Part shown: one piece after another, positions 46,535 through 61,739 of the stretch
How the letters are laid out: each line of letters begins with the position of its first letter
How positions within the stretch are numbered: the stretch's first letter is position 1
Assembly: GCA_965223265.1 (NCBI GenBank)
Contig: OZ244999.1
Coordinates: forward strand, 3,136,001 to 3,200,000
Direction: 5' to 3'
Length of the DNA stretch: 64,000 nt
Source of the DNA: Planctomycetota bacterium
GTDB taxonomy: Bacteria > Planctomycetota > UBA8108 > SXIK01
Position numbers and translations under genes: made by a program
Notes under the pieces: generated by a model
The model's database searches: none
What the model saw: only the letters and a program-made list of their open reading frames with translations
Told to the model about the DNA's origin: nothing

Positions 46535-48880
46535 CTACTCGCACGGTGGGAAGCTAGTGCAGCTCAAATCGTCGCTTGTCGGATCGAAGCCGCATTCCGT
46601 AAATGGCGGACCTGGCGCCTCGCCGCTGACGAAGAGGTGGTTGAGGAGGAAGACCGCGGCGGCGAGATCAAGAACGCCGTCGTCGTTGGTGTCTGCCGAC
46701 TTTAGGCAGGACGGTTCCTCGCCGCTGGCGAACAGGTGCTTGAGCGTAAAGATGGGATCGCTGAGGTCAACGACCGCATCGGCGTTGGAATCACCTCGCC
46801 GGAATCTCGTGGTCTGACCACACTGAGCGGCACACTCGGGGTCAGCGCAGTCGACCAGAAGATCACCATCGTCGTCGAAGCCGTTGTCGCAGATCTCGAT
46901 GCTTTCACTCGTGCAAGGGAACTCGGTCAGAGGGCGTTGACGACCATGAAAGATCCAGTCCGGGAAGAACTCAGGGACGCTCGTGATGCGTTCCCCTTCG
47001 ATCTCGAGACCGAGGGAGAAACCCCAAGTGTCGGAGGCGATGGCGGCGTCAGATGCGTTGAAAGTGCCGACGAGAATGCGATGCATGCCAGGGACAATCG
47101 TGGCGTTTGCTGTGTATTCGCAGACCTCGCGGACACCACATTGATTGCGATTGAACACGAGTTGGTCGTCAATCCACACCTGGCCGCCATCGTCGAACGC
47201 CATGCAGAGTCCGATCTCGACGGGGTCGCGACCAGTGTATTCGATGTAGGTAGCGGCAAAGCTGACAGCGCCTTCCGGCTCAAGAAAACCAGGATCGCGC
47301 GTCAGGTCGGTGTCGCCGGTGTCAGGGGTGTCGTCATTGAGAAGACGCCAAAACGGCAATTCGTCCTCGGCGGTCGGACCGATGTAGCCAAACGAAACCG
47401 CCTCGTCCGGCGAGTAGCCGATGCGGTCGCCAAGGCGTGGGTACTGGCATTCGATGCGCGTGGGCGCAACGTAGTTGCGTAGTAGGTCGGAGTCGCGCTC
47501 GCGGCCGTTGCATTGGATGGTCTGAGTGAATGGACCCAGAACGAGCCAATTTTTGGTCGCGATGAAGCCGCTCTCATCGGTGCGCTCGGGGTGGCAGCAG
47601 TCGATTTCGGCGGCTTCGTTCTCGATGCACACTTCGTTGAGTGGCGTCGGTAGGTCCCCGCGAGCGAAAACCGTCGACGTGGTATTCCCCGGGACGGTGC
47701 GAGCGAGATCACCGTTGATGAAAATCGAGAGTACCTGTTCGCTGTCGGCATTGAGGGGGTTGCGCCACTGTAGCTCGATCCCTCCGTCGGGCCGGCGCAG
47801 ACACCGGTCGATCGAAACTGGATCCAGGCGCTTTAGGCGACAGCAATCCGAAAGACCGCTCGCATTCAAGACGCAAAGTTCGAACTCTCCATTTGCAGGA
47901 AGTTCACGGTTTGCCACAACGGCGGTCGTCGCGTCACCTGCCACTGACATCACCTCGCGTTCGTCGATGCGAATCGAGATGCCTTGGTTGGCGGCCGCCC
48001 CATCGGGGTTGCGCCAATTCACCGCGAGGTTGCCGGTGCGCTGCATTTGACAACCTTCTAAGGTGACGGGGAAGACGACACGCGAGCAGTTTGGCTCGAC
48101 GAGACCGTCTGGGCGCGAGATGCCATGGAACGTCCAACCCGGAGTTGAATCAGTGATCGGGACGCCACGGCGACGCAGTCCGAAGGTCACTCCCCAAGAC
48201 TCTCTGCCGCCGATCGATGCCACTGCCACGCGGTGCACTCCAGGAGTTACGCGCATGGCTCTGATGTTTTGACAGAGCTCACGTCGTCGGCACTCGATGT
48301 TGTTCAGTACGAGCTCGCGGTCCCACCAGAGCTGCGCACCGTCGTCGGCGCCAACGCAAAGTTCGACGTCGATCGGCTCGGCTCCAGAGTACTCGACATA
48401 AGTCACGAGCCAACTCACCACGTCGGCACACTGATGGTCCTCACCGCGACCGCATCGATAGCCCGTATCGGCGTTCAGATTGTTGTCGCCGTTGTCGCTG
48501 CCGTCATCGAATTGACGCCAGAGCGGCAAGAAACTGTCACTGAGCGGGCCAATGTACTCGATCGAAGCAGCCTCGAATGGGTCATAGTCTGCTTCGTCAC
48601 CAAGTCGAGGAAAAGCACATGGGATGGCCGTAGGGGCGACAAAGTTCTGCATCAGTGCGTCGGCCGAGTCGCTGCACGCGACCGCATGGCGAAACGGTCC
48701 GAGAACGAGCCATTGACTGGAATGAATCAACCCATCACCGTCGACGACCTGCTGCGCGTTGGCTGGCGGTCCAAAGAATGTGGTCGCACAACCGAGAGCG
48801 ACTGCGATCAGTAGCGTTCGTCGATTCGGCCGCCCCCGGCGTTCGTGCTGCAGCGTCGCTCTCTTCTCTCTTGCTGACAT
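46535..48880 (-). CDS. Secreted Cys-rich protein with two PA14-like modules, two Ig/Fn3-like modules and a C-terminal dockerin-like module
   Basis: Duplicated WLVLGPF...PRLGD...YIGP...DDGxQxWxD...PGxHR units. Duplicated WRNP modules. EICDNGFDDDGDLLVDCADPEC. RFRRGDSNADAVVDLSD. Start uncertain (ORF open to 49012). Confidence 0.8.
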   Translation of the reverse strand: MSAREKRATLQHERRGRPNRRTLLIAVALGCATTFFGPPANAQQVVDGDGLIHSSQWLVLGPFRHAVACSDSADALMQNFVAPTAIPCAFPRLGDEADYDPFEAASIEYIGPLSDSFLPLWRQFDDGSDNGDNNLNADTGYRCGRGEDHQCADVVSWLVTYVEYSGAEPIDVELCVGADDGAQLWWDRELVLNNIECRRRELCQNIRAMRVTPGVHRVAVASIGGRESWGVTFGLRRRGVPITDSTPGWTFHGISRPDGLVEPNCSRVVFPVTLEGCQMQRTGNLAVNWRNPDGAAANQGISIRIDEREVMSVAGDATTAVVANRELPANGEFELCVLNASGLSDCCRLKRLDPVSIDRCLRRPDGGIELQWRNPLNADSEQVLSIFINGDLARTVPGNTTSTVFARGDLPTPLNEVCIENEAAEIDCCHPERTDESGFIATKNWLVLGPFTQTIQCNGRERDSDLLRNYVAPTRIECQYPRLGDRIGYSPDEAVSFGYIGPTAEDELPFWRLLNDDTPDTGDTDLTRDPGFLEPEGAVSFAATYIEYTGRDPVEIGLCMAFDDGGQVWIDDQLVFNRNQCGVREVCEYTANATIVPGMHRILVGTFNASDAAIASDTWGFSLGLEIEGERITSVPEFFPDWIFHGRQRPLTEFPCTSESIEICDNGFDDDGDLLVDCADPECAAQCGQTTRFRRGDSNADAVVDLSDPIFTLKHLFASGEEPSCLKSADTNDDGVLDLAAAVFLLNHLFVSGEAPGPPFTECGFDPTSDDLSCTSFPPCE

Positions 48881-49039
48881 GGGTACTATCCTACTCGAAG
48901 GACGCGTCCAGGTCATAACTCCGAACGTCTTTGAAGTGCTCAAGCGGTTCTTTGTGTCTGTTCTGTAGCCGACCAGTCTTGGCGTCGGCCGGGTTCTGAC
49001 TTCATCGCGCATGCTTGGTCGTCTCTAGCTTGCTTGTAC

Positions 49040-52000
49040 CTATGGGCAAAAGCTATCCCCCGTGCAGTCGAGGTCATCCGTCGTTGGATCCGGGCCGCAG
49101 CTGAGCGAGGGTGGTGGCAACCCAGCGTGCCCTGCGAAGAGGTGGAGCAACATCCGCACCGCGTCGGTCACGTTGATGCGGCCGTCGTCATTGGCGTCTA
49201 TAGCTTTAGCGCACAAGGGGGGTGGGGCGGATCGGAAGAGGTAGGAAAGCGTGGTCATCACATCCTCGACCGAGATTTCACCATCGCCGTCGACGTCGCC
49301 GCGTTTGAACTTCGTCTCCGGCATCGAGGTGTCCAGCCCCCTGGAGTAGCTCGACACTACAGCGCCGCCGATGCGAAGAAAGTTTTCGTCAAGATACGTT
49401 ACTTGGGGCTCAATTGCCTCGCGCGGTTCTGGAGCGATGATTTCGACGATCGCGATTCCCTGCGCCGCGGGCAGATCGACGTGGGCAGGTAGATGGATCC
49501 AATAACTGATTCGTTGGTTGTGCCGGAACGCCGAATAGACCAGATCCTGGTAGAGCGTCACGTTTCGTTCAGCGTTCGGCCATCGCAGTGTCGCACTCTC
49601 TAGCGCGGCGATGCCTACATCTTTGTGCGGTTCTGGCTGGAATCGCTCGAGGAGAGAAAACGCACCGTGATCTTCGGTCTCCACCTCGATGCGCCAGAGC
49701 GGCAGTCCTGCAAGGCTGCACGAGGTGTACTGGATCTGTTCAAATGACTCCCCTTCGGTAAGGCTTGCATTCAGTCGCACCTGCCCTGACCTGATGGCTT
49801 CGTTGAGGCTCAAGGCCTCGAGCGCGCTCGAGCCGCCAAGGTCGAACTGAAGACCACTGAGCTCCAGGTCGAGAACGGCCCCGGAGTTCAATGTGAAGCT
49901 TTGATGAAAATCGAAGCGTACCGTTGCCTGACGGTCGCCGGATCCCGCTACGATGACGACATCCGCGAGACCCGGAGACGTGGGCGTCGCGACCTCTTGC
50001 CGCGGTCCGAACTGAACCGCCTCAATGAGGTCGATTTCGAATGCGTTCTCGTCGCTGGGCAGCAGAAACTCGCCGACACGAAAGCGCACGATGCTCTTGA
50101 GTTCGAAATCGCGCCGAGATCCGCGGCCCGTTCCAAAGAGGGCACACATCTCCGCGTCGGGCGCAGCTGTGAGGGTGAACGTGGGTCTTGGGATGGGCGG
50201 TGTTGGCAGAAGGAACGGGCGTACTTGTTTGACTGCCAGCTCCCCCGTTTGCGTCACCTTGAACTCGACTTCAAGAAGAACGTCGCGGCGATCGAACGCT
50301 CCCAGCGCCAACGGGAGGTTTTCGTCAATGTGCGCAAGCAGTGCGCCGAGTTCTCTCAGTTCGTCGTCTGAGAGCACGTGTGCGCCGGGTTCGGCGAGTG
50401 AGGACGAACGCGCTCGGACGATCTCCTCGACAGCGCCGTTTTCGATGCGAAGTAGCGACCGTTCGGTCGTGGTGCCGGGCTCTGGCGTGACGACGCTCTC
50501 CTCGCCGATCTGCGCCACGACCACGAAACGGCGTTCGTTCGTTTGCGTGGGATTGCCGGTCAGGGCGACGCCGTTCGCTCGTTCGTCCGTGAACGCTTTC
50601 GTCGCAAGGATCGCCATTGCGGCTCGGTTCTGCGGCACCGAGAAAAACTCTCGCTCCTCGAAAGCTCGGTAGTTCCATAGACTTGCCCACACTCTCTTCA
50701 AGGCACGGGCGATCCCACGCTCGTTGTCACGTTTGGAATCGCAGAGCGAAGGGCCGCGCGCATCGGAATCGAGGTCGTCCGCAGCGCATGCTGAAGTTGA
50801 GTCGTAAAGCCCCGCGCCGTTGAACTCGAGGGCGTCCTCGACGTTGGACGACGATCGAATACGGATTCGATCGCTCGTGGTTCCAAAGACCTCACCGATG
50901 CGTGTAGCAAGACGGCCGACCAAGTCAGGATCGACGATGCCTTGCTCGTTGGCATGATCCCGAAAGGCCTCGAGTGCACGGAAGCGAAATCCAGGGTCAC
51001 TTTGAAACAGAGCGCTGTTGAAGAGCTCGTCGAGGTAGGACTCATAGGTGACCGTGCGGTTCGGATCGAGGGCGGAAGGCATCAAGTTCGTCCGCATGAA
51101 CTCGACGTAGTATCGAAGCGGAACAGAGAATCCCGGCGCACGATAGCGGCTGTATTGACCGCTGAGGATCGATTGCAGCCTCGAAAAGTGGGAAGCCTTA
51201 CCGCCGAAGCGGCTTTCGGAAGCGTTCGGCCCCTCGAGGATGTCGTCGGCCGCGATCGCCAGGAGATCAGGCAGGTCCCCGAACGTAAAGTCGACGTTCG
51301 GCTCCAAGGACAGCCGCGGACGACTCGCCTGCCAAAATGCATCTGCCTCCTGAAAAGTGGCGATTTCGACGGTGAATCCGGAGAGCGTGACGTCGAGGCG
51401 TACAAGCTCGCCTTCGAATTCGATGAATCGCGCCGACGCAGCTTCGACAAACGCGTTGGGAGTCCCACGGCGTGCGGTCCGTACCGCCAAGTGACTCAAT
51501 TCGGTCTGGGGCTCCTGCGTGATCACGCCGCCGACGACGCCTTCGATGTCGCGCGGCGCCTCTTCCAACACGAGGATGTCCTGAAAGCTGAAGCGGCCGT
51601 TCTCGTTCAGAGCAGCGAAGCTTTCCGCATCGAGACGTCGAACGCGCCCGAACGTGGCCCCGGTCGTGTAGGCTTCGAATCGTCCAGTTTCGATCTGGTG
51701 TTCGAAGTCGATCGGAAATGGCGCTGACGTCCACTGACGTGCGACTGCGATGGCCGCAGCGTTCGTCGGCGCGTAAACGAGCGGCTCGAGTTCGAAGGCA
51801 TCGCTAAGCCGCGTGAAGATTGCCGTCATCTCCTCAAGCGTCAGCGCCTCGATCGACGAAAAATCGGCGAAGACGTTGAAGCCGAAGGTCGTCTCGCCGT
51901 CGCGAGTGAACCGTGTAATGCTGCCGACGAAGTAGTCGCGTGTCGCCCGACGACCGACGAGACGATCGTACTCCTCGACGCCGAGTGCCGGGAAACGCTC

Positions 52001-54517
52001 GGGAAACACCTGCGCGAGAAAGTCTTGGTGAAGAGGGAAGCGCTCAGTGTCCTGGAAGACGGTCGAAAGAAGCTCAGAATCGTCTCGTGCCGGTACCGTA
52101 AACTTGAGGAATCGGCCGCTGCGTTCATCGCTGTCGACAGGCGCTGAGAGCGAGCGAAAATCGACGAGCGTGCAGAGCGTGTGACGATACGGCATGACGT
52201 CGACGACGATCGATTCGTTGCGAAGGATCGTGAAACTCTTGCCAAGTCGATCCGGAGACACCAAGTCGATGTCGCCGTCGTCGTCGACGTCTCCTGGCAA
52301 GACGAAACGGAGGCCGGCACCGGCTGGAAAGTGTAGAGGCGTACTGAATCGTCCGTCACCAAAGCCGCGGAGCATCGACACCGTGCTTTGAATCTCGTTG
52401 GCGCTGACGAGGTCTAGGGCGCCGTCGCCGTCGAGATCGACGACCGTTACCGAGTAGGGCGCCTGCCCGAGACCAAGTTCGTTCTCGAGATTGAACGTTC
52501 CGTCGCCTCCGCCGCGCAAGAGAGACAAGCTCGACGCGGCAGTGCTGGCGGCAACGAGATCAAGGTGCCCGTCTTGGTTGAGGTCGGCAGCGACAACTGC
52601 GTCAGCACGTCCACGGAGCGGGTGTGTGCCACCCGGTGCGAAGAAGCCGCCTCGCTGATTAAGGAGAATGGTGACGTTCTGCGCTTCGGAAACCGCAACG
52701 GCGAGGTCGACCGCTTCGTCGCCATTGTAGTCGCCGACCGCAAGAAAGCGAGGTGAGGGGCCGACACGGTAGTCCATGCGTTCGACTTGCTCGACGAGTG
52801 TGGGCGAGGCGAGAAGGACGCTCACGTCGCCCGAGTTCAAGTTCGCGCTGGCGGCATCGAGATTGCCGTCACCGTTGAAATCGCCAAGCTTTACATCGAT
52901 CGGAGCTGCACCGACTCGGTGGATGACCGAAGGGCTGAACGTGCCGTTGCCGCGACCAAGGTTGGCGACGATCGACTCGTTGCGGTGGTCCACCGTGACG
53001 CAATCTGGGATGCCGTCCGCGTCGATGTCCGCGGCAGCGAGAGCGATTGGCTGCTCGGAATCGAAGGGCTGAGCCTCGAGCACGCGAAACCCTGTGGGTG
53101 TGTTGAGGGCAACGGAAAACGACCCCGGGACTGTGTTGGCGCCAACGATGTCAAGCCGACCATCGCCGTCGAGGTCGACCACCGCGCCGGAGTGTGGGGC
53201 GCAGCCGCGGCCGATGAAGCAGCCGGGAAGTTCGATGCGGTCGCTAGAGAATGCGAACGCGCCAGGACGATCGCTTGACCAGAGCATTCCCATGCTCGCG
53301 GGACTCGGGCTGACGAACGCGAAGTCGACGTCTCCGTCGGCGTCGAAGTCGGACGCCGCTAGGCCGTTGGCGAGGCGGTTCGTCCCGAAACGGCGTGGTG
53401 GCGCGAATCCTCCGTCCCCGTCGCCGAGCCACAGGAGCACCGACGGGGGGCGTGCTGCAGACACCGCAAGGTCGACTGAGCCGTCGGCGTCGAAGTCCGC
53501 GCTGATCAGTGATGCTCCGGCGGTCGGATAGGTGGCGTCGACGGTGAGCGTGCCGTTGCGACCGAGCAGCAGGACGATCGCCTCATTCGTCAGCAGGGCC
53601 GCATCCAAGTTGCCATCCTGGTCGTAATCTCCCGTGACCACTTCCGTCGGGCGACCGGGAACCGACGACTCGACGGGTTCTGCAAACGTCCCGTCGCTGC
53701 GTCGCGGCAACAGCGAGTAGCCTCCGACGCGTGCTACGAGCACATCGTTTCTGCCGTCGCCGTTGAAGTCTGCGGTAGTCGCAGCGACTGGGCTGGCGCC
53801 CACGGCGACGCGACCCTCGAGCCGGAAGTCTCCGTCTCCGGTGTTCAAGGCGACGAGCAGCTCAGAGGCTCCCTCGAGTGGCACGAGAAGATCAGGAGCT
53901 CCGTCGTCGTCAACGTCGTCGAGCGCCGGTGTGCCAGGCGCGTCCTGCAGTGCCAAGGTGGCGCCGCGTTCAAACTTGTTGCGCTCGCCGGCGTTGAGAT
54001 AGACGCGAAGCGTATCGGGATAGATCGCGATGAAATCCGTCAGGCCGTCACCGTTGAGGTCGCCGGCGTCGACATGTTCGAGGCCGAAGTTCGCATCGAT
54101 CACCGAAGGAGTGGTGAACGAGCCCAGTCCGTCGTTGTAGCTGACGAACACCTTTGAGCCGGTGGCTGACGTGCCCTGGCTCGCGGCAAGTAGGTCTACA
54201 GCTTCGTCGCCGTCGAAGTCGGCGCTAACGATCTGGCGCGGTACTTGGCTCAGAGGCAGAATCGCTAGCCCGGTTTGGAGATGGAGCAGGGAGGATTCGC
54301 ATTCGTCGGGTATGCCGCTGGCGTTGCAGTCGTCGCTGAGCCGGAGTTCAATATCCTCTGCGTCATCCCGGCCGTTTCCGTTACAGTCCTGCCCCATCGC
54401 GGGAGCTGCGACGACGAGGTGGAGCGTGGCCGCAGCGATCAGGGTCGTTAGACGGTGGCGTCGCGGGCCCACGCGGAGTGACCGTTCGGCGATCTGGCGC
54501 AGTGTCGGGAGCGACAT
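49040..54517 (-). CDS. Secreted FG-GAP repeat protein fused to phosphohistidine and PEP/pyruvate-binding (PPDK_N, ATP-grasp) domains and a dockerin-like module
   Basis: Signal peptide, DCNGNG motif and more than ten DxDxDG FG-GAP repeats. VITQEPQTELSHLAVR, FGGKA, RSSSNVED..FNGAGLYDS, KRVWASLWN, EVEFK...KQVRPF. C-terminal FKRGDVDGDG. Confidence 0.88.
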   Translation of the reverse strand: MSLPTLRQIAERSLRVGPRRHRLTTLIAAATLHLVVAAPAMGQDCNGNGRDDAEDIELRLSDDCNASGIPDECESSLLHLQTGLAILPLSQVPRQIVSADFDGDEAVDLLAASQGTSATGSKVFVSYNDGLGSFTTPSVIDANFGLEHVDAGDLNGDGLTDFIAIYPDTLRVYLNAGERNKFERGATLALQDAPGTPALDDVDDDGAPDLLVPLEGASELLVALNTGDGDFRLEGRVAVGASPVAATTADFNGDGRNDVLVARVGGYSLLPRRSDGTFAEPVESSVPGRPTEVVTGDYDQDGNLDAALLTNEAIVLLLGRNGTLTVDATYPTAGASLISADFDADGSVDLAVSAARPPSVLLWLGDGDGGFAPPRRFGTNRLANGLAASDFDADGDVDFAFVSPSPASMGMLWSSDRPGAFAFSSDRIELPGCFIGRGCAPHSGAVVDLDGDGRLDIVGANTVPGSFSVALNTPTGFRVLEAQPFDSEQPIALAAADIDADGIPDCVTVDHRNESIVANLGRGNGTFSPSVIHRVGAAPIDVKLGDFNGDGNLDAASANLNSGDVSVLLASPTLVEQVERMDYRVGPSPRFLAVGDYNGDEAVDLAVAVSEAQNVTILLNQRGGFFAPGGTHPLRGRADAVVAADLNQDGHLDLVAASTAASSLSLLRGGGDGTFNLENELGLGQAPYSVTVVDLDGDGALDLVSANEIQSTVSMLRGFGDGRFSTPLHFPAGAGLRFVLPGDVDDDGDIDLVSPDRLGKSFTILRNESIVVDVMPYRHTLCTLVDFRSLSAPVDSDERSGRFLKFTVPARDDSELLSTVFQDTERFPLHQDFLAQVFPERFPALGVEEYDRLVGRRATRDYFVGSITRFTRDGETTFGFNVFADFSSIEALTLEEMTAIFTRLSDAFELEPLVYAPTNAAAIAVARQWTSAPFPIDFEHQIETGRFEAYTTGATFGRVRRLDAESFAALNENGRFSFQDILVLEEAPRDIEGVVGGVITQEPQTELSHLAVRTARRGTPNAFVEAASARFIEFEGELVRLDVTLSGFTVEIATFQEADAFWQASRPRLSLEPNVDFTFGDLPDLLAIAADDILEGPNASESRFGGKASHFSRLQSILSGQYSRYRAPGFSVPLRYYVEFMRTNLMPSALDPNRTVTYESYLDELFNSALFQSDPGFRFRALEAFRDHANEQGIVDPDLVGRLATRIGEVFGTTSDRIRIRSSSNVEDALEFNGAGLYDSTSACAADDLDSDARGPSLCDSKRDNERGIARALKRVWASLWNYRAFEEREFFSVPQNRAAMAILATKAFTDERANGVALTGNPTQTNERRFVVVAQIGEESVVTPEPGTTTERSLLRIENGAVEEIVRARSSSLAEPGAHVLSDDELRELGALLAHIDENLPLALGAFDRRDVLLEVEFKVTQTGELAVKQVRPFLLPTPPIPRPTFTLTAAPDAEMCALFGTGRGSRRDFELKSIVRFRVGEFLLPSDENAFEIDLIEAVQFGPRQEVATPTSPGLADVVIVAGSGDRQATVRFDFHQSFTLNSGAVLDLELSGLQFDLGGSSALEALSLNEAIRSGQVRLNASLTEGESFEQIQYTSCSLAGLPLWRIEVETEDHGAFSLLERFQPEPHKDVGIAALESATLRWPNAERNVTLYQDLVYSAFRHNQRISYWIHLPAHVDLPAAQGIAIVEIIAPEPREAIEPQVTYLDENFLRIGGAVVSSYSRGLDTSMPETKFKRGDVDGDGEISVEDVMTTLSYLFRSAPPPLCAKAIDANDDGRINVTDAVRMLLHLFAGHAGLPPPSLSCGPDPTTDDLDCTGDSFCP

Positions 54518-55013: not shown

Positions 55014-55454
55014 ATGGGAGCTGAAGCCAAAGCGCTTGAGCTGGGTCTGACCTTCCCCAAGCAGGAGCCTGGCTATCTGAATCTCTGCGCGCGCTCGGGA
55101 AATCTGTTGTTCACATCAGGGCACACGAGCGACATGAAAGGCAAACTCGGCGCCGACTTGAGCGTCGACCAAGGGTATGAAGCTGCGAAAGATTGCGCCA
55201 TCAAGATCCTCCGTTCCGTTCACAACGCTCATGGTACGCTCGATGGCTTGCGCGTCATCAAGTTGCTCGGCTGCGTAAACTCGACGCTTGAGTTCACTGA
55301 GCAGCATTTGGTGATCAATGGCGCCTCGGATTTGCTCCATGAGATCTTCGGCAAAGAAGGCGATGGTTATCACGCGCGCAGCGCACTGGGATTTGCGTCG
55401 CTTCCGACCGGGCCGGCCGTCGAAGTTGAGGCGATCTTCGAGATCAAATCGTAG
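55014..55454 (+). CDS. RidA/YjgF/YER057c/UK114 family protein
   Basis: LLFTSGH...GKLG...VIKLLGCVNS...VINGASDLL...HARSALG..SLP..AVEVEAIFE. SD AGGAGGA. Confidence 0.93.
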   Translation: MGAEAKALELGLTFPKQEPGYLNLCARSGNLLFTSGHTSDMKGKLGADLSVDQGYEAAKDCAIKILRSVHNAHGTLDGLRVIKLLGCVNSTLEFTEQHLVINGASDLLHEIFGKEGDGYHARSALGFASLPTGPAVEVEAIFEIKS

Positions 55455-55578: not shown

Positions 55579-58500
55579 TCAGGCTGTCGATGACTTCGCG
55601 CCGCCAACGCGTAGACATCGCACTGCGAAGCGCCGGAGCGCGGAGCCGCAGTCCTCCACGACAACCACGGTGGCTGGTAGAAGGAGTGATGTGAGAAGTG
55701 TCGAAAGGGCTATTCCTCCGATGACGACGTAGGCCATGGAATAGTAGTACGTACCGCCGAACGACGGGCGTTGAATCAGCATTGGGACCAGACCTATGAG
55801 CGTGGTCATCGCCGTCATCAGGATCGGGCGAAGCCGCTCGCGTCCACCCTTGAGAAGCGCCTCGTGGCGATCCATACCTTGGCGTCGATAAGTGTTGATG
55901 TGTTCAATCATGACGATGCCGTTGTTGACGACGATGCCGACCAGGAGGAGAACGCCCATAGCGGCGGGGATGTCGAAGTCGGTTCCTGTTAAGTAGAGTG
56001 TCCAGATTGCGCCAGAGAGAGCGAATGGCAGGGCGATCATCAGGGCTATCGCCTGTCGCACCGACTCGAACAGACTCGCCATGACACCAAAGACAAGCAT
56101 GAGCGCGAGGAGAAGGTTGACAACGTACTCGTTAGAGGTCTCTCGCTGTCGCTGTTGCCACGAGCCGAACGTCCACCCGTATCCGTACGGGAACGTCATC
56201 GCCGCTAGGGCGGCTTCGACCGCAGGGACGTAGTCGTCTCTCGTACCCATCTCATATTCGGCCCCGACCCAGACACTGGTGTTTCGATCGCTTCGTTCGA
56301 TTCGATGCGGACCGCGAACTTCGTTGAATTTGGCTACCGAGGCGAGTGGAAGCTTCTCACCCTGTTCGCTCCAAAACGGCAAGTTTTGCAACTGGACCAC
56401 GCTCTCGGCGTCCTTTTCATCAAGAGTCAAGCGCATTTCGCGCTCGCCCGCGGGGGTCCTGAATCGCTGCAAGCGACGACCTCGAAACGTTAGGCCGACG
56501 ACTTCGGCGACGCTTGCCGGGGGCACGTCGTAGCGGGACACCAAGTCTCGATCAAGAGTGACGTGGATCTCTTGGCGACCTTGTTCGTTGCTCGCGAATG
56601 TGTTTTCCAGGCCCGGAATTCTCGCGATGCGAGTGCGAGCCTCCTCTGCGAGATCGGCGAGGACTTCAGAATCCTCGCCGAAGACGCGAAAGGCGACCCG
56701 CTTGCCTCGATCATGACGCCACGCGCGGCGATTCTCGGTCACCTCGAGGCGAACGCCGGCGATTTCGGGGAGGATCTCCCTGAGTCGTTGCCTCACTCTC
56801 GTGACGTTTTCTTGTGTCGCTTCTCCATCCCTCAAATAGACTCGAGTCATCGACCAGCGATCACTCCACCAGCTGTAGATGGACTTTGCATTCAGCTCAT
56901 CTCGGTAGTCGTCAAGGAAGGTCTCAACGTGTGTGATGAGTTGTTCTCTTTCGTCGAGAGTCTTCTCCTCACTGAATTTGTAGTGAATTTGAGCAAAGAT
57001 GTCTTGTCGATCGAGTGTGAACTTGCGTTCGATCGAGAAGAAGGGATAGAGCGCTGAGGCTGTGACTGCAATGCCGATCACCGGCGCCATCCACGCGTGA
57101 CGTAAGTGAAGCGCGAGCACGCGTTCGTACTGCAGCTCGAGGCGTCGCATCCATGGCTCTTTTGGCCGAGGCTTGGTTCGAATGAACCATGACGTGGCGA
57201 GTGGAATCAGTGTTTGGCTGACGAAGAGAGACGCCAGCAGGGTAAGGCAGACGGTGATGCCGATCTCTTTGAGTGGGATGTTGAGCTCGCTCGGTTTGTT
57301 AAAGACGATCGGCAGGAACACAATGACGGAAGTTAGCGTCGCGGTCACGACGGCTACGGAGACTTCGCGCGCACCGATGAGTGACGCGCTGCGGCGGTTT
57401 TTTCCCTCTTCCTGGTGCCTGAAGATGTTCTCGATCACGACGACAGCATTGTCGACAAGCATGCCAATTCCGACGATCAACCCGAGCAAAGTGAGCGTAT
57501 TGAGCGTGCGACCGTTCAGCCACAGGATGCCGCACGCGACAATCAGGGAGAACGGGATGCAAGCGGCTGCGACGAGCGTCGTCGAGAAACGCCGCAGAAA
57601 CACATAAAGCACGAGTGAGGCGAGGAGTGCGCCGAACACTCCGGCGTAGAAGAGTTGACCCAAGGTTTTCTTGATTTCTTTACCTTGGTTAAACCAAACC
57701 AGAAACTGAAGCCCTTCCAGCTCGGGATCCGACCGGAGAGCCGCGATGCGTTTTTCGAGCGCGTCGCAGACGGCGACGACGTTGGCTTTCGACTCCGTGC
57801 TCACGGTCAGTCCGACTGCGAACTTGCCGTCGAGATGGCGGCCGTACTCGAGTGGGGGCTCGCGGTATTCGACGTCGGCGACGTTCCGCAGCCGTAGACC
57901 GTCGCCGCGCAGAGTGAGGTTGCGGATTTGCTCAATGTCGACGAAGCTGCCGATCGTACGCAGTGTGTAGCGGCGATCACCTTCGACGATCTTGCCCAGC
58001 GACTGATTGAAATTGCTTCGCCGCAGGATGCGCGATACTTCGCGTACGTCCATGCGATGAAGCTCGAGGTCTGCGAGCCGGAGATTGATCCGCACTTCGC
58101 GAGGATTGACGCCGTCGAGTCGGACTTGTGCGACACCCGGGATGCGCTGCAGTGGGCGCACGACTCGCTGCTCGAGGAGATCGTAGTTCTCGCTCAAATT
58201 TCGTTTCGAGCTCAATCGGCCTTCGAGCACCGGGTCATCGGCTTCCTGCGAGTTCCAATGTGTTGCCACGGTGATATCGCCGACGTCTTCTGGCAGCTCG
58301 CCGCGGATTCGGTCGAGTTTTTCCCACACTTCAACCCGCGCCAGGTGCATGTCTGTCGCCCAATCGAACTCGAGTCGAACGAATCCGGAATCGTCGCTAC
58401 AGCGTGACCACATCTGTTTGAGCCCCTTCACCGCTCCCAGTGCCTCCTCGACGGGGCGGACAATCATGCGTTCGATCTGCTCCGGTGAGGCGCTCGGGTA

Positions 58501-58650
58501 CGGCAGGCGTACGAAGAGTTCGGGCTCCTCCATATCAGGCAGAAAGGCGAGTGGTAGGCGTGTCATCGCGACGCCGCCGAGCACGACTAGGCTGACGATC
58601 AGCATGAGCGTCGTGACGTGGCGCTTGATGGCAAGTTCGGGCAGGGTCAC
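55579..58650 (-). CDS. RND efflux transporter permease subunit 2 (AcrB/AcrD/AcrF family)
   Basis: GMLVDNAVVVIENI, GIVVNNGIVMI, RLRPILMT. GTG start at 58650 overlaps the upstream TGA (GTGA coupling). Confidence 0.93.
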   Translation of the reverse strand: MTLPELAIKRHVTTLMLIVSLVVLGGVAMTRLPLAFLPDMEEPELFVRLPYPSASPEQIERMIVRPVEEALGAVKGLKQMWSRCSDDSGFVRLEFDWATDMHLARVEVWEKLDRIRGELPEDVGDITVATHWNSQEADDPVLEGRLSSKRNLSENYDLLEQRVVRPLQRIPGVAQVRLDGVNPREVRINLRLADLELHRMDVREVSRILRRSNFNQSLGKIVEGDRRYTLRTIGSFVDIEQIRNLTLRGDGLRLRNVADVEYREPPLEYGRHLDGKFAVGLTVSTESKANVVAVCDALEKRIAALRSDPELEGLQFLVWFNQGKEIKKTLGQLFYAGVFGALLASLVLYVFLRRFSTTLVAAACIPFSLIVACGILWLNGRTLNTLTLLGLIVGIGMLVDNAVVVIENIFRHQEEGKNRRSASLIGAREVSVAVVTATLTSVIVFLPIVFNKPSELNIPLKEIGITVCLTLLASLFVSQTLIPLATSWFIRTKPRPKEPWMRRLELQYERVLALHLRHAWMAPVIGIAVTASALYPFFSIERKFTLDRQDIFAQIHYKFSEEKTLDEREQLITHVETFLDDYRDELNAKSIYSWWSDRWSMTRVYLRDGEATQENVTRVRQRLREILPEIAGVRLEVTENRRAWRHDRGKRVAFRVFGEDSEVLADLAEEARTRIARIPGLENTFASNEQGRQEIHVTLDRDLVSRYDVPPASVAEVVGLTFRGRRLQRFRTPAGEREMRLTLDEKDAESVVQLQNLPFWSEQGEKLPLASVAKFNEVRGPHRIERSDRNTSVWVGAEYEMGTRDDYVPAVEAALAAMTFPYGYGWTFGSWQQRQRETSNEYVVNLLLALMLVFGVMASLFESVRQAIALMIALPFALSGAIWTLYLTGTDFDIPAAMGVLLLVGIVVNNGIVMIEHINTYRRQGMDRHEALLKGGRERLRPILMTAMTTLIGLVPMLIQRPSFGGTYYYSMAYVVIGGIALSTLLTSLLLPATVVVVEDCGSALRRFAVRCLRVGGAKSSTA

Positions 58651-61600
58651 GATTGAGCCTCCGGCAGAGCGGCACTTTCCCCGTCTTTGCCTTGGGGCGT
58701 CAACATGTAGGCTGCCGGAATCACGAGCAGCGTCAGAATCGTGCTCAGTAGTAGGCCAGAGGCGACCGTGATGGCGAGCGGCGCGCGCAGTTCCGCTCCC
58801 TGCCCCCACGGGAGAGCCATTGGCACGAGTCCAAGCACCGTGGTCAGCGTCGTCATCAAGATCGGACGCAGCCTGAGATGTCCGGCTTGGATCACTGCCT
58901 CAAAGCGTTCGACTCCTTGACGACGCATTCGGTTGATCGTGTCGATCAGAACGATGGCGTTGTTGACGACGATACCTACGAGCATGATACCACCGATCAA
59001 CACGATGACCGTGACCGTCGTACCGGTGAGGGCGAGCGCCGCGACAACCCCGACGAGCGACAGCGGGATCGTGAAGAGAACGACGAATGGATGGACGAAC
59101 GACTCGAAGATCGAAGCCATCACCAGGTAAACGAGAAAAATCGCCAGTCCGATGGCAAAGCGAAGACTTTGGAAAGACACCTGGCGCTCGCGATTCTGCC
59201 CGGCGATTTCAGCACTGACGCCACTGGGAAATGAGAAGTTGGTGAGCAGCGCTTCGACCTCGTCGATCGCCGAGCCAAGAGATCGCTCGCGTAGATTCGC
59301 TGTCACCACAGCCGCGCGTTGCTGCTGCACGCGATGCACCTCCGCGGGGCCTCTCCCAACGCGAAGGTTGGCTACGGTAATCAGCCGGATCGGCGTGCCG
59401 TTGGCGCTGGGGACGATCAGTCGTTGGACGTCTTCCAGACTGGCGCGGTCCGCTTCAAGATTGCGAATACGGACGTCGATTTGTCGTTCCTGTTGCTTGA
59501 AGCGTGTTGGAACGACACCTTGAATTCTGCTCTGCAGTGTGTTCGAAAGGCGCTCCATGTCGAGCCCGGTCGCGGCGATGCGGTCGCGATCGAACTTTAC
59601 TTGAATCTCTGGGCTTCCCGCCTCCAACGACGAGCGGACGTCCGTCATGCCGTCCATACTGCTGACGCGTTGTGCCAGGGCTAAGGACGCGCTGCGGAGA
59701 TCATCGAGATCTTCTCCGTAGAGGATAATCTCGACGGGTGTCTTGAGGCTGAAATACGACGGTCGCCCGAACTTGACATCCAAGTCAGGGATCTCTTGGA
59801 ATTCACCGCTAAGGTACCGGACGACACCATCCTCCGCAGCCTCGTCGCTGCGATCGTGCAGCACGATGTTCAGCTGCCCGAGGTTCTCGGCCTTCGTGTT
59901 GAGTGAGATGCCGCCGGCGACGAGGCGACTGCCGACAGTCGAGTAGATGCGCTCGATTCTCTGGTCTGCTTGTGCCAACCGTTCAAGATTGGAGATCGCC
60001 CTGTCTGTCGCTTGGAGAGATGCTCCTTCCGGGAGATTGACCTCGAAGTAGAATTCGCCTTCCGTCAGCGAGGGGATTAGTTCCGTCTCGAGTGTTCGTC
60101 CAGCGGCGACGACGGCGACCACGAAGAGGAGTGCCGCAGAGCTCAGCGTGACGAACCGGTGTTTGAGTACGGATCTTAGGATTCGATCGTAGAGTGCAGA
60201 GATGAACCCCAGGGAGCGCACTGAGGGGGGATTCTTCGCGACGGGCCGCGTCGAGGACGCGTTCCTCCGTCTGCCAACGGCACTCAACATCGGAATCAGG
60301 GTTACCGCGACGACGAGCGAAGCAATCAGACTGACCGTCACGGTGAGCGCCTGATCTCGAAAGAGCTGGCCCGCGATTCCTTCGACGAAGACGATCGGTA
60401 GGAAGACGGCGACGGTCGTCATTGTCGACGCCAGGACTGCAGGCCCAACCTCGCTCGCTCCCTGAACGGCTGCTTTCTGTGGCGTCTCGCCCGACTGCCT
60501 GCGTCGGTAGATCGACTCAAGCACGACGATCGAGTTGTCGACGAGCATGCCGACGCCGAGCGTCAGTCCGCCAAGCGACATGATGTTGAGTGAGATGTCA
60601 GCGCGGTACATGACCAGAAACGCGGCGATGATCGACACTGGGATCGAGAGCGCGACGATCAAGGTGCTCCGCAGATCGCGGAGAAATACGAAGAGGATGA
60701 GGGTTGCGAGGAGCCCTCCGATGGCTGCGGCGTCTCGGACGCCGCGAATCGCCAAGGAGATGAACTCCGATTGGTCGAAGAGAGTCACCAGCTCGTGGCC
60801 AGGAGGGAGCTTCGAACGCCAGTTCTCGAGTTTGTCTTCGAGGGCGCGCGCTGCATGGACCGTGTTCGCATCGCCTTCCTTGTAGATCGCGATTTCGACG
60901 CATTCCTTGCCGTCGACACGTGTGATTTCGTCTCGCTCTTTAGTTCCCATGCGCACGTCTGCAACTTCTCGCAGGCGGACCGTCGCGCTGCCGCTGCGCC
61001 AGACGATGAGCTCTCCGATCTCTTCCACTGTGCGGAACTCGTTGAGGGTGCGGACCAGGTATTGAAGGTTCTCCCCGCGTAAGGCACCGCCGGGCAGGTT
61101 GACGTTCGATACGCCGACGACGTCGCGCAAATGGTCGAGAGGAATACCGAGGGCGGCGAGGCGCTCCTGGTCGATCTCGATCTGCACCTCTTCTTCGAAG
61201 CCACCCTTGATCTGGGCCGAGGCGATCCCGTCAACGGTCTCAAGCTCAGGCTTGATGCGACGCTCTGCAAGGTCGCGTATGTCTGTCAATTCGCCTGGGC
61301 CTACCAGCGCGAGACGGATGATCGGGTCGAGCGCGGGATCGAATCGCAGCACGATCGGATCTTCGGCCTCTTCAGGAAGAATGAGGCGGTCGATCTTCTC
61401 GCGTACCTCCAGTGATAGGAGGTCCATGTCGGATGACCAATCGAATTCGAGCGTGACTTCAGACACCCCCGAACGAGATATCGAGTGTACTGACTGTAGG
61501 CCTCGCAGAACTCCGACAGCTTCTTCGACTTCGCGGGTGACGAGGTATTCGACTTCTTCTGGCGCGGTGTCAGGAAAGTTGGTCCGCACCGTGATTGACG

Positions 61601-61730
61601 GATAACTGATGTTCGGGAAGAGCTCGACAAGGAGGCGTGAATACCCGACGACACCGAAGACCACGACGGCCAGTGTCGTCATGACGACGGTGACGCGTCG
61701 AGCGACGGCGATTTCGACGAGCTTGCGCAT
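58647..61730 (-). CDS. RND efflux transporter permease subunit 1 (AcrB/AcrD/AcrF family)
   Basis: GMLVDNSIVVLESI, FLPIVFVEGIAGQLF, GIVVNNAIVLID, RLRPILMTTLTT. Confidence 0.95.
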   Translation of the reverse strand: MRKLVEIAVARRVTVVMTTLAVVVFGVVGYSRLLVELFPNISYPSITVRTNFPDTAPEEVEYLVTREVEEAVGVLRGLQSVHSISRSGVSEVTLEFDWSSDMDLLSLEVREKIDRLILPEEAEDPIVLRFDPALDPIIRLALVGPGELTDIRDLAERRIKPELETVDGIASAQIKGGFEEEVQIEIDQERLAALGIPLDHLRDVVGVSNVNLPGGALRGENLQYLVRTLNEFRTVEEIGELIVWRSGSATVRLREVADVRMGTKERDEITRVDGKECVEIAIYKEGDANTVHAARALEDKLENWRSKLPPGHELVTLFDQSEFISLAIRGVRDAAAIGGLLATLILFVFLRDLRSTLIVALSIPVSIIAAFLVMYRADISLNIMSLGGLTLGVGMLVDNSIVVLESIYRRRQSGETPQKAAVQGASEVGPAVLASTMTTVAVFLPIVFVEGIAGQLFRDQALTVTVSLIASLVVAVTLIPMLSAVGRRRNASSTRPVAKNPPSVRSLGFISALYDRILRSVLKHRFVTLSSAALLFVVAVVAAGRTLETELIPSLTEGEFYFEVNLPEGASLQATDRAISNLERLAQADQRIERIYSTVGSRLVAGGISLNTKAENLGQLNIVLHDRSDEAAEDGVVRYLSGEFQEIPDLDVKFGRPSYFSLKTPVEIILYGEDLDDLRSASLALAQRVSSMDGMTDVRSSLEAGSPEIQVKFDRDRIAATGLDMERLSNTLQSRIQGVVPTRFKQQERQIDVRIRNLEADRASLEDVQRLIVPSANGTPIRLITVANLRVGRGPAEVHRVQQQRAAVVTANLRERSLGSAIDEVEALLTNFSFPSGVSAEIAGQNRERQVSFQSLRFAIGLAIFLVYLVMASIFESFVHPFVVLFTIPLSLVGVVAALALTGTTVTVIVLIGGIMLVGIVVNNAIVLIDTINRMRRQGVERFEAVIQAGHLRLRPILMTTLTTVLGLVPMALPWGQGAELRAPLAITVASGLLLSTILTLLVIPAAYMLTPQGKDGESAALPEAQS

Positions 61731-61739
61731 GCCCAGATT

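Follow-up and report, generated by a model that had tools for sequence, protein, structure and literature searches.

A putative exported dikinase-type phosphotransferase with glucan-water-dikinase-like domain order on an FG-GAP and dockerin scaffold in a Planctomycetota bacterium

The window analysed here, a stretch of 64,000 nucleotides from a Planctomycetota bacterium (contig OZ244999.1), contains a long reading frame that is open throughout and encodes a protein denoted P0001 (Table 1). From the N-terminus, the protein is composed of a signal peptide, about 14 FG-GAP blades, a family-specific region termed the N-domain, a phospho-His-type domain, a PPDK_N ATP-grasp domain, a beta-rich C-domain, a dockerin-like pair and a Cys tail. 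All motifs listed in a preliminary description of this DNA were found, i.e. VITQEPQ at residues 998-1004, LSHLAVR at 1007-1013, GGKA at 1105-1108, RSSSNVED at 1221-1228, AGLYDS at 1235-1240 and KRVWASLWN at 1274-1282, and the His codon at 51491-51493 is that of His1009. The same description had noted that a pyruvate barrel is missing, and this agrees with our data: PEP-utilizers_C has no Pfam match in P0001 at E<=0.1, and the region after the ATP-grasp domain, where ~385 residues still follow, is all-beta in the structural model with no TIM barrel.

Table 1. Features of P0001 and of the adjoining downstream reading frame (positions refer to the window)
Feature	Coordinates	Strand	Basis or remark
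Whole ORF P0001, 1825 aa	49040..54517	-	ORF reading and translation
Signal peptide (predicted), aa 1-42	54392..54517	-	sequence, hydrophobicity heuristic, family comparison
Cys-rich N-terminal motif of mature protein, aa 43-76	54290..54391	-	kept right after the signal peptide in long forms
FG-GAP/VCBS repeat region, aa 86-769	52211..54262	-	Pfam FG-GAP_3; motif count
N-domain, aa 770-950	51668..52210	-	model pLDDT; conserved residues
Swivelling phospho-His-type domain, aa 951-1075	51293..51667	-	Foldseek; sub-threshold GWD1_pHisD; invariant His
PPDK_N-type ATP-grasp nucleotide domain, aa 1076-1440	50198..51292	-	Pfam, Foldseek, profile alignment
C-domain, aa 1441-1732	49322..50197	-	model secondary structure, pLDDT, conservation
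Dockerin-like EF-hand pair, aa 1733-1795	49133..49321	-	Pfam Dockerin_1; PDB profile match
C-terminal Cys tail CG.DPT.D.L.C....C, aa 1796-1825	49043..49132	-	conservation
Downstream ORF, up to 825 aa	46535..49012	-	gap of 27 nt from P0001 to the first ATG of this ORF

At the N-terminus of P0001, a basic n-region is followed by an h-region (aa 23-41), the residues A-M-G precede Q43 (QDCNGNG), and the Cys-rich motif that would open the mature protein reads DCNGNG..D..DCN..G.PDECE. The h-region is the only TM-like segment of the protein. The N-terminal signal peptide noted earlier was again called positive, by a simple hydrophobicity heuristic combined with family comparison, and the same single N-terminal hydrophobic layout is present in 103 of the 118 relatives whose sequence opens with a start residue. 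In ~1070-aa forms a classical signal peptide stands directly before the core, and complete ~700-aa forms carry an N-terminal hydrophobic segment in 87 of 92 cases and a lipobox-like motif, detected by regex, in 66 of 92. Export by predicted Sec or lipoprotein signals is supported, on this heuristic call, as a family-wide trait. A Tat signal (RR in PRRHRL) was considered and rejected, as paralogues lack the motif. If the hydrophobic segment had been misread and P0001 were an ordinary cytoplasmic dikinase, its dependence on ATP would be easily accommodated, and the call is indeed a heuristic one; however, N-termini of the signal or lipoprotein type are found repeatedly in long, ~1070-aa and ~700-aa forms, which come from different phyla, P0001 itself has conserved Cys pairs besides its dockerin and FG-GAP repeats, and there is no internal TM segment to return the core to the cytoplasm. 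We therefore regard a cytoplasmic location as extremely improbable.

FG-GAP and dockerin modules are typically extracellular. In P0001, Pfam FG-GAP_3 matches 11 stretches (E 1.2e-70), and the region holds 14 motifs of the Dx[DN]xDG type at a spacing of ~49 aa; we infer that it forms two seven-bladed propellers. When the full-length family profile was compared with the PDB, the result was dominated by FG-GAP matches, and this part of the profile matched propeller lectins, integrin alpha and Tc-toxin B-subunit propellers. At the other end, Dockerin_1 (PF00404) matches aa 1740-1789 with 26 bits (cut-off 22.9), and a profile comparison with the PDB gave matches to cellulosomal dockerins; the large window ORFs covered by the scan included no cohesin. 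Long and ~1070-aa forms keep the Cys tail as their C-terminal end, and dockerin and Cys tail recur together on four other ORFs in the window. The idea that a substrate is held by the propellers does not survive as the core mechanism, because the propellers are dispensable, ~1070-aa and ~700-aa forms being devoid of them.

Pfam PPDK_N (PF01326) matches aa 1205-1434 of P0001 (E 1.4e-11, 44.7 bits, cut-off 27), and the ATP-grasp span extends from GGKA, with K1107 encoded at 51197-51199, through KQVRPF. Profile alignment with PEP synthase 8a8e (E 1.5e-12) pairs GGKA with GGKG, RFRSSSNVED with VRSSATAED and LDxEFK...KQVRPF with DIEW...VQSRPI, so that K1107, R1221, E1418, Q1431 and R1433 line up with the PPDK ATP-site residues Lys, Arg, Glu, Gln and Arg, which matter functionally. 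Of 120 aligned cores, at least 97% keep His1009, K1107, R1219, R1221, E1227, D1228, E1418, K1420, Q1431 and R1433, and most of these catalytic-site residues are invariant in 40 relatives ranging from ~700-aa to ~1100-aa forms. An insert in the ATP-grasp domain bears C1244 and C1259, which are invariant in both alignments (74 and 40 relatives). The AlphaFold models are confident (pLDDT 90.1 and 89.7), and in Foldseek searches the ATP-grasp domain matched rifampin phosphotransferase (RPH) 5hv1 with E 1.2e-13 and the RPH ATP-binding domain 5hv6 with TM 0.68-0.71, and also PEP synthase, HpeI and PPDK. Entries for K22A and R337A mutants are present among the PDB matches of this domain. A single-sequence search of the PDB with the core gave PEP synthase matches only, which were marginal.

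The domain upstream carries His1009, placed by the model at the N-terminus of a helix (model helix 235-243 begins at this residue). The concern that the His might not be conserved in homologs was examined: it shows no variation in the alignments, which comprise 74, 40 and 66 relatives, and all 66 loci of the last set, drawn from several phyla, keep it. Given this invariance and its conservation in at least 97% of the 120 cores, the motif is no chance match. In Foldseek the domain aligned with rifampin phosphotransferase over 115 columns (rmsd 3.5 A, 21% identity, probability 1.00) and also matched PPDK and other swivelling beta/beta/alpha domains; as modelled, its fold is that of a swivelling phospho-His domain. 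Its sole recurring Pfam match is GWD1_pHisD (PF22973), found in 20/40 and 34/66 relatives, in every case below the curated cut-off (12-14 bits on P0001 versus a cut-off of 27; best E among the matches 1.4e-4). By comparison, the PEP-utilizers His family PF00391 matched 0/40 and 2/66 relatives at E<=1, and an Atlas feature match points to a streptophyte GWD pHis cluster. A profile of N-domain plus His domain had no match among PDB sequences. Judged by its residues, the predicted ATP-driven phosphate-transfer unit of P0001 is intact.

The two remaining conserved parts resemble nothing known in our searches. The N-domain is an alpha/beta domain modelled with high pLDDT; no form of the family lacks it, and H830 (codon 52028-52030), R860, G865 and P917 are invariant in it. 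The C-domain is all-beta, with conserved C1458 and C1600 (the former invariant and the latter nearly so in 74 relatives) and the motif Y..A.RHN (H1666, N1667); it is missing from ~700-aa forms and also occurs as a stand-alone ORF beside family members at two loci (L060 and L051). Tested alone against Pfam at E<=10, the N-domain, the C-domain and the N-terminus each gave no match. Foldseek returned no PDB structural analogue of the N-domain, the C-domain had no usable Atlas match, and no homologue of it was found at E<=0.001 when it was used alone as query among 160-510-aa proteins. Propeller, AttH and Phm7 were rejected as analogues of the N- or C-domain (Foldseek probability <0.5, low TM), as was a ~400-aa lipoprotein adjoining the family gene in 7 Myxococcales loci as a detached C-domain (hhalign probability 0.3%). 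Across Pfam, PDB and Atlas, neither domain was recognised as a third catalytic domain of a known type. We propose the N-domain as the putative acceptor-site domain, and since both domains match nothing in these resources, this placement is a guess.

The family comprises 918 representative clusters at E<=1e-30, from Planctomycetota, Verrucomicrobiota, Omnitrophota, Myxococcota and Chloroflexota, and literature searches for this architecture found no characterised member or publication. About 18 putative paralogues appear to be present in the host genome, with mean identities of 59% in the ATP-grasp domain, 56% in the His domain, 38% in the C-domain and 30% in FG-GAP, the least conserved region. 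It could be argued that the His and ATP-grasp domains belong to a surface adhesin, on which they would sense a nucleotide or ligand or play a structural part: adhesin-type repeats dominate P0001, and no source of ATP is known outside the cell. Yet pseudo-enzymes usually lose catalytic residues, and here every expected one is kept across phyla and ~18 paralogues, which makes a non-catalytic module very unlikely.

Gene neighbourhoods were examined by clustering 498 ORFs from 79 loci, and no universal partner emerged; nor was any substrate-hinting partner (phosphatase, glycoside hydrolase or transporter) conserved across these loci. The largest non-self cluster, from 8 loci, consisted of antisense ORFs overlapping the family gene and was discarded as an artefact. 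In the window, the ORF downstream of P0001 contains two internal repeats and ends in the same dockerin and Cys tail; this tail is 45% identical to that of P0001, and no Pfam match of the ORF lies above threshold. Scans for a terminator between the two genes, and for promoters, gave no signal above chance, and the two may be co-transcribed. At 4.6 kb from P0001 a CotH kinase is encoded that has a signal peptide and likewise bears the dockerin and Cys tail, and a CotH homologue also adjoins a family member at another locus (L037).

An alternative is a delivered effector or toxin, exported but active only inside prey or competitor cells, where it would phosphorylate a target or drain ATP to AMP. 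Such a protein would find abundant ATP in the target cells, which would solve the ATP problem, and its lipoprotein forms might possibly be exported on outer-membrane vesicles. The family is common in Myxococcota and Omnitrophota, lineages that are predatory or attached to other cells; moreover, its short forms are putative lipoproteins by their lipobox-like motif, its FG-GAP profile resembles Tc-toxin B-subunit propellers, and its paralogues have expanded with variable outer modules. However, neither P0001 nor the 79 neighbourhoods showed a recognisable translocation, secretion-system or immunity module, the putative toxic part is the most conserved while the outer parts vary, the reverse of polymorphic toxins, and the conserved Cys pairs and Ca-binding repeats suggest a function outside cells. 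We consider an effector distinctly unlikely.

In GWD and PWD (EC 2.7.9.4, 2.7.9.5), the phospho-His domain stands immediately before the nucleotide domain. The order of P0001, with the His domain before a C-terminal-side ATP-grasp domain, is the same, as had been pointed out in the preliminary description, and differs from that of PPS, PPDK and RPH. In the accessible part of one source (PMC5575247), the nucleotide domain of GWD/PWD is C-terminal and the N-terminal modules are CBM45 or CBM20. The likeness includes the PPDK-type nucleotide domain following the His domain, the LSH motif round the His and the position of non-catalytic modules N-terminal to the catalytic unit (FG-GAP in P0001, CBM45/CBM20 in GWD/PWD). 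On the other hand, P0001 has no CBM45 or CBM20 (Pfam, E<=0.1) and its N-terminal part is FG-GAP, it has an extra conserved N- and C-domain without Pfam match, and it is a bacterial, predicted exported protein with dockerin and Cys tail, whereas GWD works in plastid or cytosol, where ATP is made. Of the earlier label glucan-water-dikinase-like, we retain the domain order and the intact, invariant His and ATP-site residues; P0001 is not regarded as a member of the GWD family, because CBM45/CBM20 are absent, the pHis match is below threshold and two extra conserved domains are present.

RPH orders its domains as ATP-grasp, substrate domain and His domain, and is cytoplasmic, whereas P0001 has the His domain first and then the ATP-grasp domain; both share a three-part logic without PEP barrel, and P0001 finds its best structural match in RPH (PDB 5hv1, 5fbs) with its ATP-grasp domain as well as with its His domain, a top rank that is biased because the PDB holds no full-length GWD. 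PPS and PPDK align with P0001 in ATP-grasp motifs, catalytic residues and folds, but they place the nucleotide domain first and have the PEP/pyruvate TIM barrel; their His domain belongs to PF00391, which just 2/66 relatives of P0001 match, although the fold is common to both. The ATP-grasp fold also matches HpeI of HpeHI (PDB 9goj; E 2.8e-9), and HpeHI and phenylphosphate synthase perform dikinase chemistry on a non-pyruvate acceptor, though as separate, cytoplasmic subunits with phenolic substrates.

These matches raise the possibility of an exported small-molecule phosphotransferase, comparable with rifampin phosphotransferase, phenylphosphate synthase or HpeHI, by which an antibiotic, phenolic or signal compound would be inactivated or activated before it enters the cell. 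Besides the RPH and HpeI structures, weak partial NCBIfam matches to RPH, PigC and RedH models and the minimal ~700-aa form, with no obvious polymer-binding module, point this way. The structural ranking is, however, subject to the bias named above, and all NCBIfam scores are far under their cut-offs, e.g. 12.9 bits versus 999 for the RPH model NF041857. Moreover, the domain order is unlike that of RPH, Foldseek found no RIF-binding-like domain in the P0001 models, and the FG-GAP propellers, LTD or dockerin modules carried by many members fit macromolecular or surface targets. A small-molecule acceptor is, in our judgement, quite improbable. That the best structural matches, RPH and HpeI, act on small molecules and not on polymers still counts against the main reading given below.

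We propose that P0001 is an exported dikinase-type phosphotransferase acting outside the cytoplasm, an account that we hold to be probable on balance and whose cycle is modelled on PPDK, PEP synthase, rifampin phosphotransferase and GWD by homology. The Sec signal would export P0001, and the dockerin-like, Cys-tailed C-terminus would hold the protein, which probably stays periplasmic or on the cell surface. ATP would be bound by the ATP-grasp domain, the beta-phosphate would be passed to His1009 on the swivelling domain and the gamma-phosphate to water or phosphate, and AMP would be released. The phosphorylated His domain would then swing to a second site and phosphorylate the acceptor; this site is proposed on the family-specific N-domain, with its invariant His830 and conserved Arg and Tyr, and the C-domain of longer forms may contribute to it. 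The two FG-GAP propellers, the C-domain and the dockerin tail would be accessory, for targeting or anchoring, and would diversify among the ~18 paralogues while the phosphotransfer unit stays conserved. The acceptor would be a polymer or surface macromolecule and not a metabolite. To our knowledge, an extracytoplasmic ATP supply has not been established for these bacteria. For the location there are precedents: Lig E, described in the accessible part of the source as a DNA ligase that is directed to the periplasm and depends on ATP, and the CotH kinase of the window likewise combine a signal peptide with an ATP-dependent catalytic domain, but their folds and chemistry are unrelated to P0001 and the precedent extends to location only.

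A broader reading, which we think rather unlikely, is that the members of the family phosphorylate polymers outside the cytoplasm at the expense of ATP and make up a widespread class of enzymes, so far unrecognised, as a bacterial counterpart of plant GWD. If it were true, glycans that are insoluble or crystalline, or other polymers of the surface, the matrix or prey, would be phosphorylated and opened for degradation or remodelling, Planctomycetota, Verrucomicrobiota, Myxococcota and relatives would supply ATP to the periplasm or cell surface, and the exported CotH kinase encoded nearby, which shares the anchor tail, would draw on this ATP pool as well. As far as we know, dikinases with a swivelling-His phosphate relay have been described only as cytoplasmic or plastidial enzymes. 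The accessible part of a preprint (bioRxiv 10.64898/2026.09.25.754361) regards the GWD type of wiring as a eukaryotic hallmark of starch metabolism. Here an apparently intact GWD-type unit sits behind predicted signal or lipoprotein signals in at least five phyla and hundreds of clusters. Recognition of the family would give a name to many proteins now annotated just as 'VCBS/FG-GAP repeat' or 'PEP/pyruvate-binding domain', and if these proteins are active where they are sent, there would be either an extracytoplasmic supply of ATP or action inside other cells, and either would be new biology.

The open frame 49040..54517 on the minus strand encodes P0001, a protein of 1825 aa, and all motifs quoted in the preliminary description were found in its translation, with His1009 at codon 51491-51493 as given there. 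In Pfam searches P0001 matched FG-GAP_3 in 11 stretches (E 1.2e-70; FG-GAP was also matched), PPDK_N at aa 1205-1434 (44.7 bits, cut-off 27) and Dockerin_1 at aa 1740-1789 (26 bits, cut-off 22.9), and at E<=0.1 neither PF00391 nor PEP-utilizers_C was matched, i.e. the pyruvate-binding barrel is absent, as claimed. NCBIfam models of PEP synthase, RedH/PigC and rifamycin phosphotransferase gave only short matches far below threshold. The layout was based on alignments and two AlphaFold models, a large one (aa 770-1825, 74 sequences, pLDDT 90.1, pTM 0.70) and a small one (aa 775-1075, 66 sequences, pLDDT 89.7, pTM 0.76). We infer that the FG-GAP blades make up two propellers. For the N-domain and the C-domain, Pfam gave no match and Foldseek against the PDB no convincing one; nothing was found for the N-domain (together with the His domain) in a profile search against PDB sequences, nor for the C-domain in the Atlas or in a homologue search among proteins of 160-510 aa (E<=0.001).

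Features of P0001, of the window and of loci encoding relatives (L numbers)
Feature	Position	Remark
Signal peptide (predicted)	P0001 aa 1-42	
Cys-rich motif DCNGNG...PDECE	P0001 aa 43-76	
FG-GAP blades, 14	P0001 aa 86-769	14 Dx[DN]xDG-type motifs, spacing ~49 aa
N-domain	P0001 aa 770-950	alpha/beta
His domain	P0001 aa 951-1075	
ATP-grasp domain	P0001 aa 1076-1440	GGKA to KQVRPF
C-domain	P0001 aa 1441-1732	all-beta
Dockerin-like pair	P0001 aa 1733-1795	
Cys tail	P0001 aa 1796-1825	
Dockerin + Cys tail	46556-46810	on ORF 46535-49012 (-)
Dockerin + Cys tail	31360-31677	on ORF 27934-31737 (+)
Dockerin + Cys tail	18400-18648	on ORF 16198-18672 (+)
Dockerin + Cys tail	41593-41871	on CotH gene
CotH-type kinase	41554-44409 (-)	951 aa, Pfam E 8.6e-50; 4.6 kb from target
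~400-aa lipoprotein	L046:7935-9143, L054:4437-5684, L056:4530-5741, L063:4697-5812, L064:4461-5666, L074:7938-9158, L067:969-2555	
Antisense-ORF artefact	L004, L020, L029, L036, L044, L047, L064, L074	minus strand over match
Putative paralogues besides P0001	P0003, P0024, P0032, P0052, P0055, P0057, P0074, P0077, P0079, P0082, P0083, P0089, P0108, P0110, P0113, P0115, P0120	17 in all, full-length

For the ATP-grasp domain of the large model, the top Foldseek matches in the PDB were rifampin phosphotransferase (RPH; 5hv1, E 1.2e-13) and its isolated ATP-binding domain (5hv6, target TM 0.68-0.71), followed by PEP synthase 2ols, HpeI 9goj and many PPDK entries. The His domain of the small model aligned with that of RPH (5hv2) over 115 columns (rmsd 3.5 Å, 21% identity, probability 1.00); Foldseek also matched this model to PPDK and to further swivelling beta/beta/alpha domains (MccF, LD-carboxypeptidase, aconitase X, RraA, AF_0055), and its helix 235-243 begins at His1009. 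A reading of P0001 as an RPH- or HpeHI-like enzyme that is exported and phosphorylates small molecules seems unlikely. The family profile matched PEP synthase 8a8e (E 1.5e-12), where GGKA pairs with GGKG, RFRSSSNVED with VRSSATAED and LDxEFK...KQVRPF with DIEW...VQSRPI. Among 120 cores, H1009, T1000, Q1004, R1013 and R1017 on the His-domain side and K1107, R1219, R1221, E1227, D1228, E1418, K1420, Q1431 and R1433 on the ATP-grasp side are at least 97% conserved. His1009, whose conservation among relatives had been named as decisive, is invariant in alignments of 74, 40 and 66 sequences, the latter two each taking in several phyla. Because residues of catalytic type are conserved or invariant, a decayed module does not fit; we regard a non-catalytic sensor or structural module as improbable.

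In the plant glucan dikinases GWD and PWD the His domain precedes the nucleotide domain, and PPS and RPH are ordered otherwise. P0001 has the GWD wiring, its nucleotide domain lying on the C-terminal side of the His domain, and the order proposed earlier is thus borne out. By sequence, the only Pfam resemblance of the His domain is to PF22973 (GWD1_pHisD), always under the curated cut-off: P0001 gave E 0.03 (14.3 bits) and E 0.14 (12.2 bits), and sub-threshold matches were seen in 20 of 40 relatives (best E 0.0037) and 34 of 66 (best E 1.4e-4), with PF00391 matched in none of the 40 and two of the 66. An Atlas feature search with aa 775-1075, taken as a lead only, returned PF00391 clusters and one GWD1_pHisD cluster from streptophytes (score 0.91, 188 shared features). 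Judged from sequence, the His domain may be distantly related to GWD. As parts of the literature describe them, GWDs carry CBM45 or CBM20 modules at the N-terminus, and their C-terminus is a homologue of the PPDK nucleotide domain (PMC5575247), and GWD is treated as a eukaryotic marker of starch metabolism in a section of bioRxiv 10.64898/2026.09.25.754361. P0001 differs in that no CBM45 or CBM20 was found in it and in that it carries the N- and C-domain without match; it is outside the GWD family, though wired like GWD.

A hydrophobicity heuristic gave one TM-like segment in P0001 (aa 23-41, after a basic stretch and ending in A-M-G ahead of Q43), and no internal TM segment was found by hydrophobicity scan; 35 of 226 relatives have marginal hydrophobic stretches, at scattered, unconserved positions. 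Of 118 relatives whose sequence opens with a start residue, 103 have a hydrophobic segment at the N-terminus, and the rest are mostly fragments. Forms of ~1070-1100 aa are without propellers and carry a classical signal peptide immediately ahead of the core, and ~700-aa forms end at KQ[IV]RPF, consisting of N-domain, His domain and ATP-grasp only. The 124 proteins examined included 92 complete ~700-aa forms, of which 87 have an N-terminal hydrophobic segment and 66 a lipobox-like motif by strict regex (several more by eye). Cys1244/Cys1259 in the ATP-grasp insert are invariant, lipoprotein forms included, and among forms with the C-domain Cys1458 is invariant and Cys1600 at least 90% conserved. 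The N-terminal export signal noted before is thus predicted for P0001, and N-terminal signals recur across the length classes of its relatives. Because of these signals, the Cys pairs and the Ca-binding FG-GAP and dockerin modules, the most economical prediction is that the family is extracytoplasmic; a cytoplasmic enzyme with a misread signal is very improbable.

In the initial homologue search 278 proteins reached E<=0.001 (best 44-50% identity over the core), and the named ones are all Planctomycetes MAG proteins, labelled 'VCBS repeat-containing', 'FG-GAP-like repeat-containing', 'PEP/pyruvate-binding domain-containing' or hypothetical. An exhaustive representative search gave 2537 clusters at E<=0.001, of which 1944 remain at E<=1e-10 and 918 at E<=1e-30, with giant relatives of 3336 and 6419 aa. 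In a set with a single genome for each GTDB species, relatives are encoded in at least 567 stretches. Of these, the best 79, all from MAGs, belong to Planctomycetota, Verrucomicrobiales, Kiritimatiellae, Omnitrophota, Myxococcales, Nannocystis, Anaeromyxobacteraceae, Sumerlaeia, Anaerolineae and Ardenticatenales. Forms of ~700-790 aa (559 matches) are for the most part from Myxococcota and have only generic names. In P0193, P0199, P0202, P0211, P0213 and P0216 an LTD-like (lamin-tail) N-terminus was seen by eye instead of FG-GAP propellers.

Among 120 listed relatives, 18 appear to come from the source genome, P0001 included, and the simplest reading is that it holds ~18 paralogues. Their mean pairwise identity is 59% in the ATP-grasp, 56% in the His domain and 50% in dockerin plus tail, falling to 44% in the N-domain, 38% in the C-domain and 30% in the FG-GAP region, which indicates that the catalytic unit is conserved and the outer modules diversify. 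In at least one pair the His and ATP-grasp regions are 100% identical and other parts differ, suggesting recent duplication or gene conversion. C-domain-only ORFs adjoin full-length family genes at L060:2637-3695 (+) (352 aa, HMM E 8e-65) and L051:5122-6087 (-) (321 aa, 4e-55); since it occurs as separate ORFs, the C-domain is an autonomous module.

GC is even along the window (about 0.58-0.64), and neighbouring genes carry the planctomycete hallmark domains PSCyt1, PSCyt2/PSD1 and DUF1501. Dockerin plus Cys tail (pattern CG.DPT.D.L.C....C) stands at the C-terminus of four more window ORFs, including the gene directly downstream, and of many neighbours in other loci; three of the four have no Pfam domain above threshold. 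The module seems to be a signal that the organism commonly uses for sorting or anchoring; no cohesin turned up among the large ORFs of the window that were scanned. The CotH kinase, which also bears an LTD domain (the only one confirmed by Pfam), CHB_HEX_C/Fn3-associated domains and a signal-like N-terminus, is a second ATP-dependent phosphotransferase of predicted export in the window, and a CotH protein 37% identical to it adjoins a family member at L037:9493-13212.

The downstream ORF (up to 825 aa) has two long internal repeats, both opening WLVLGPF..., and a weak PA14 match (E 0.12) as its sole match; a signal-like segment near residue 65-88 suggests a true start 3' of the first ATG. Upstream, on the same strand, a tandem pair of AcrB-type genes for RND pumps (1076 and 1027 aa, ORF calls overlapping by ~160 nt) and a HlyD-type membrane-fusion gene occupy 55579-62915 (-), with a RidA/YjgF-like ORF at 55014-55454 (+) between them and the target. 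The window also holds a Kdo/WaaP-family kinase-like ORF (594 aa, 36434-38218 (+)) and an FG-GAP-only ORF (564 aa, 21216-22910 (-)).

Across the 79 loci no conserved partner gene was found, and an apparent 'conserved neighbour' cluster was an artefact of antisense ORFs of 500-1200 aa overlapping the family gene in high-GC loci. In seven Myxococcales-type loci a ~400-aa lipoprotein without Pfam match lies directly beside a ~700-aa family gene; kinship with the C-domain was rejected (hhalign probability 0.3%), and the lipoprotein may be a partner or substrate.

An extracytoplasmic dikinase relay is the best-supported mechanism, and we hold it to be somewhat more probable than all else: outside the cytoplasm, ATP would phosphorylate His1009, and His1009~P would pass its phosphate to an acceptor. 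We take the N-domain as the candidate acceptor site, since no other non-relay domain is shared by all forms and since it has an invariant His830. Of the earlier dikinase interpretation, which is supported in part, the GWD-like order, the intact unit and the predicted export stand. An effector acting within prey or competitor cells would solve the ATP problem, and we give that reading a low probability. Lig E, described as a periplasm-targeted ATP-dependent enzyme, is a precedent for such a location; since the dikinase-type protein and the CotH kinase share export and anchor features, the ATP question belongs to the organism and not to one gene.

The family was not described in the literature searched, outside which lay subscription journals and bioRxiv supplements. 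There, no paper joining Planctomycetes, dockerin and FG-GAP was found, and nothing relevant on glucan water dikinase in Planctomycetes or on secreted dikinases with signal peptide, ATP-grasp and phosphohistidine; for PPDK_N/PF01326 with dockerin, FG-GAP and VCBS, the one find was a preprint about giant genes in Omnitrophota, a portion of which interprets PPDK-type domains in 'Archaeovorins' as pyruvate/PEP enzymes (10.1101/2023.11.21.568195). P0001 is a dikinase superfamily protein new in architecture and predicted location, from a large uncharacterised family, and its interest comes from the extracytoplasmic ATP paradox and the ease with which it can be tested.
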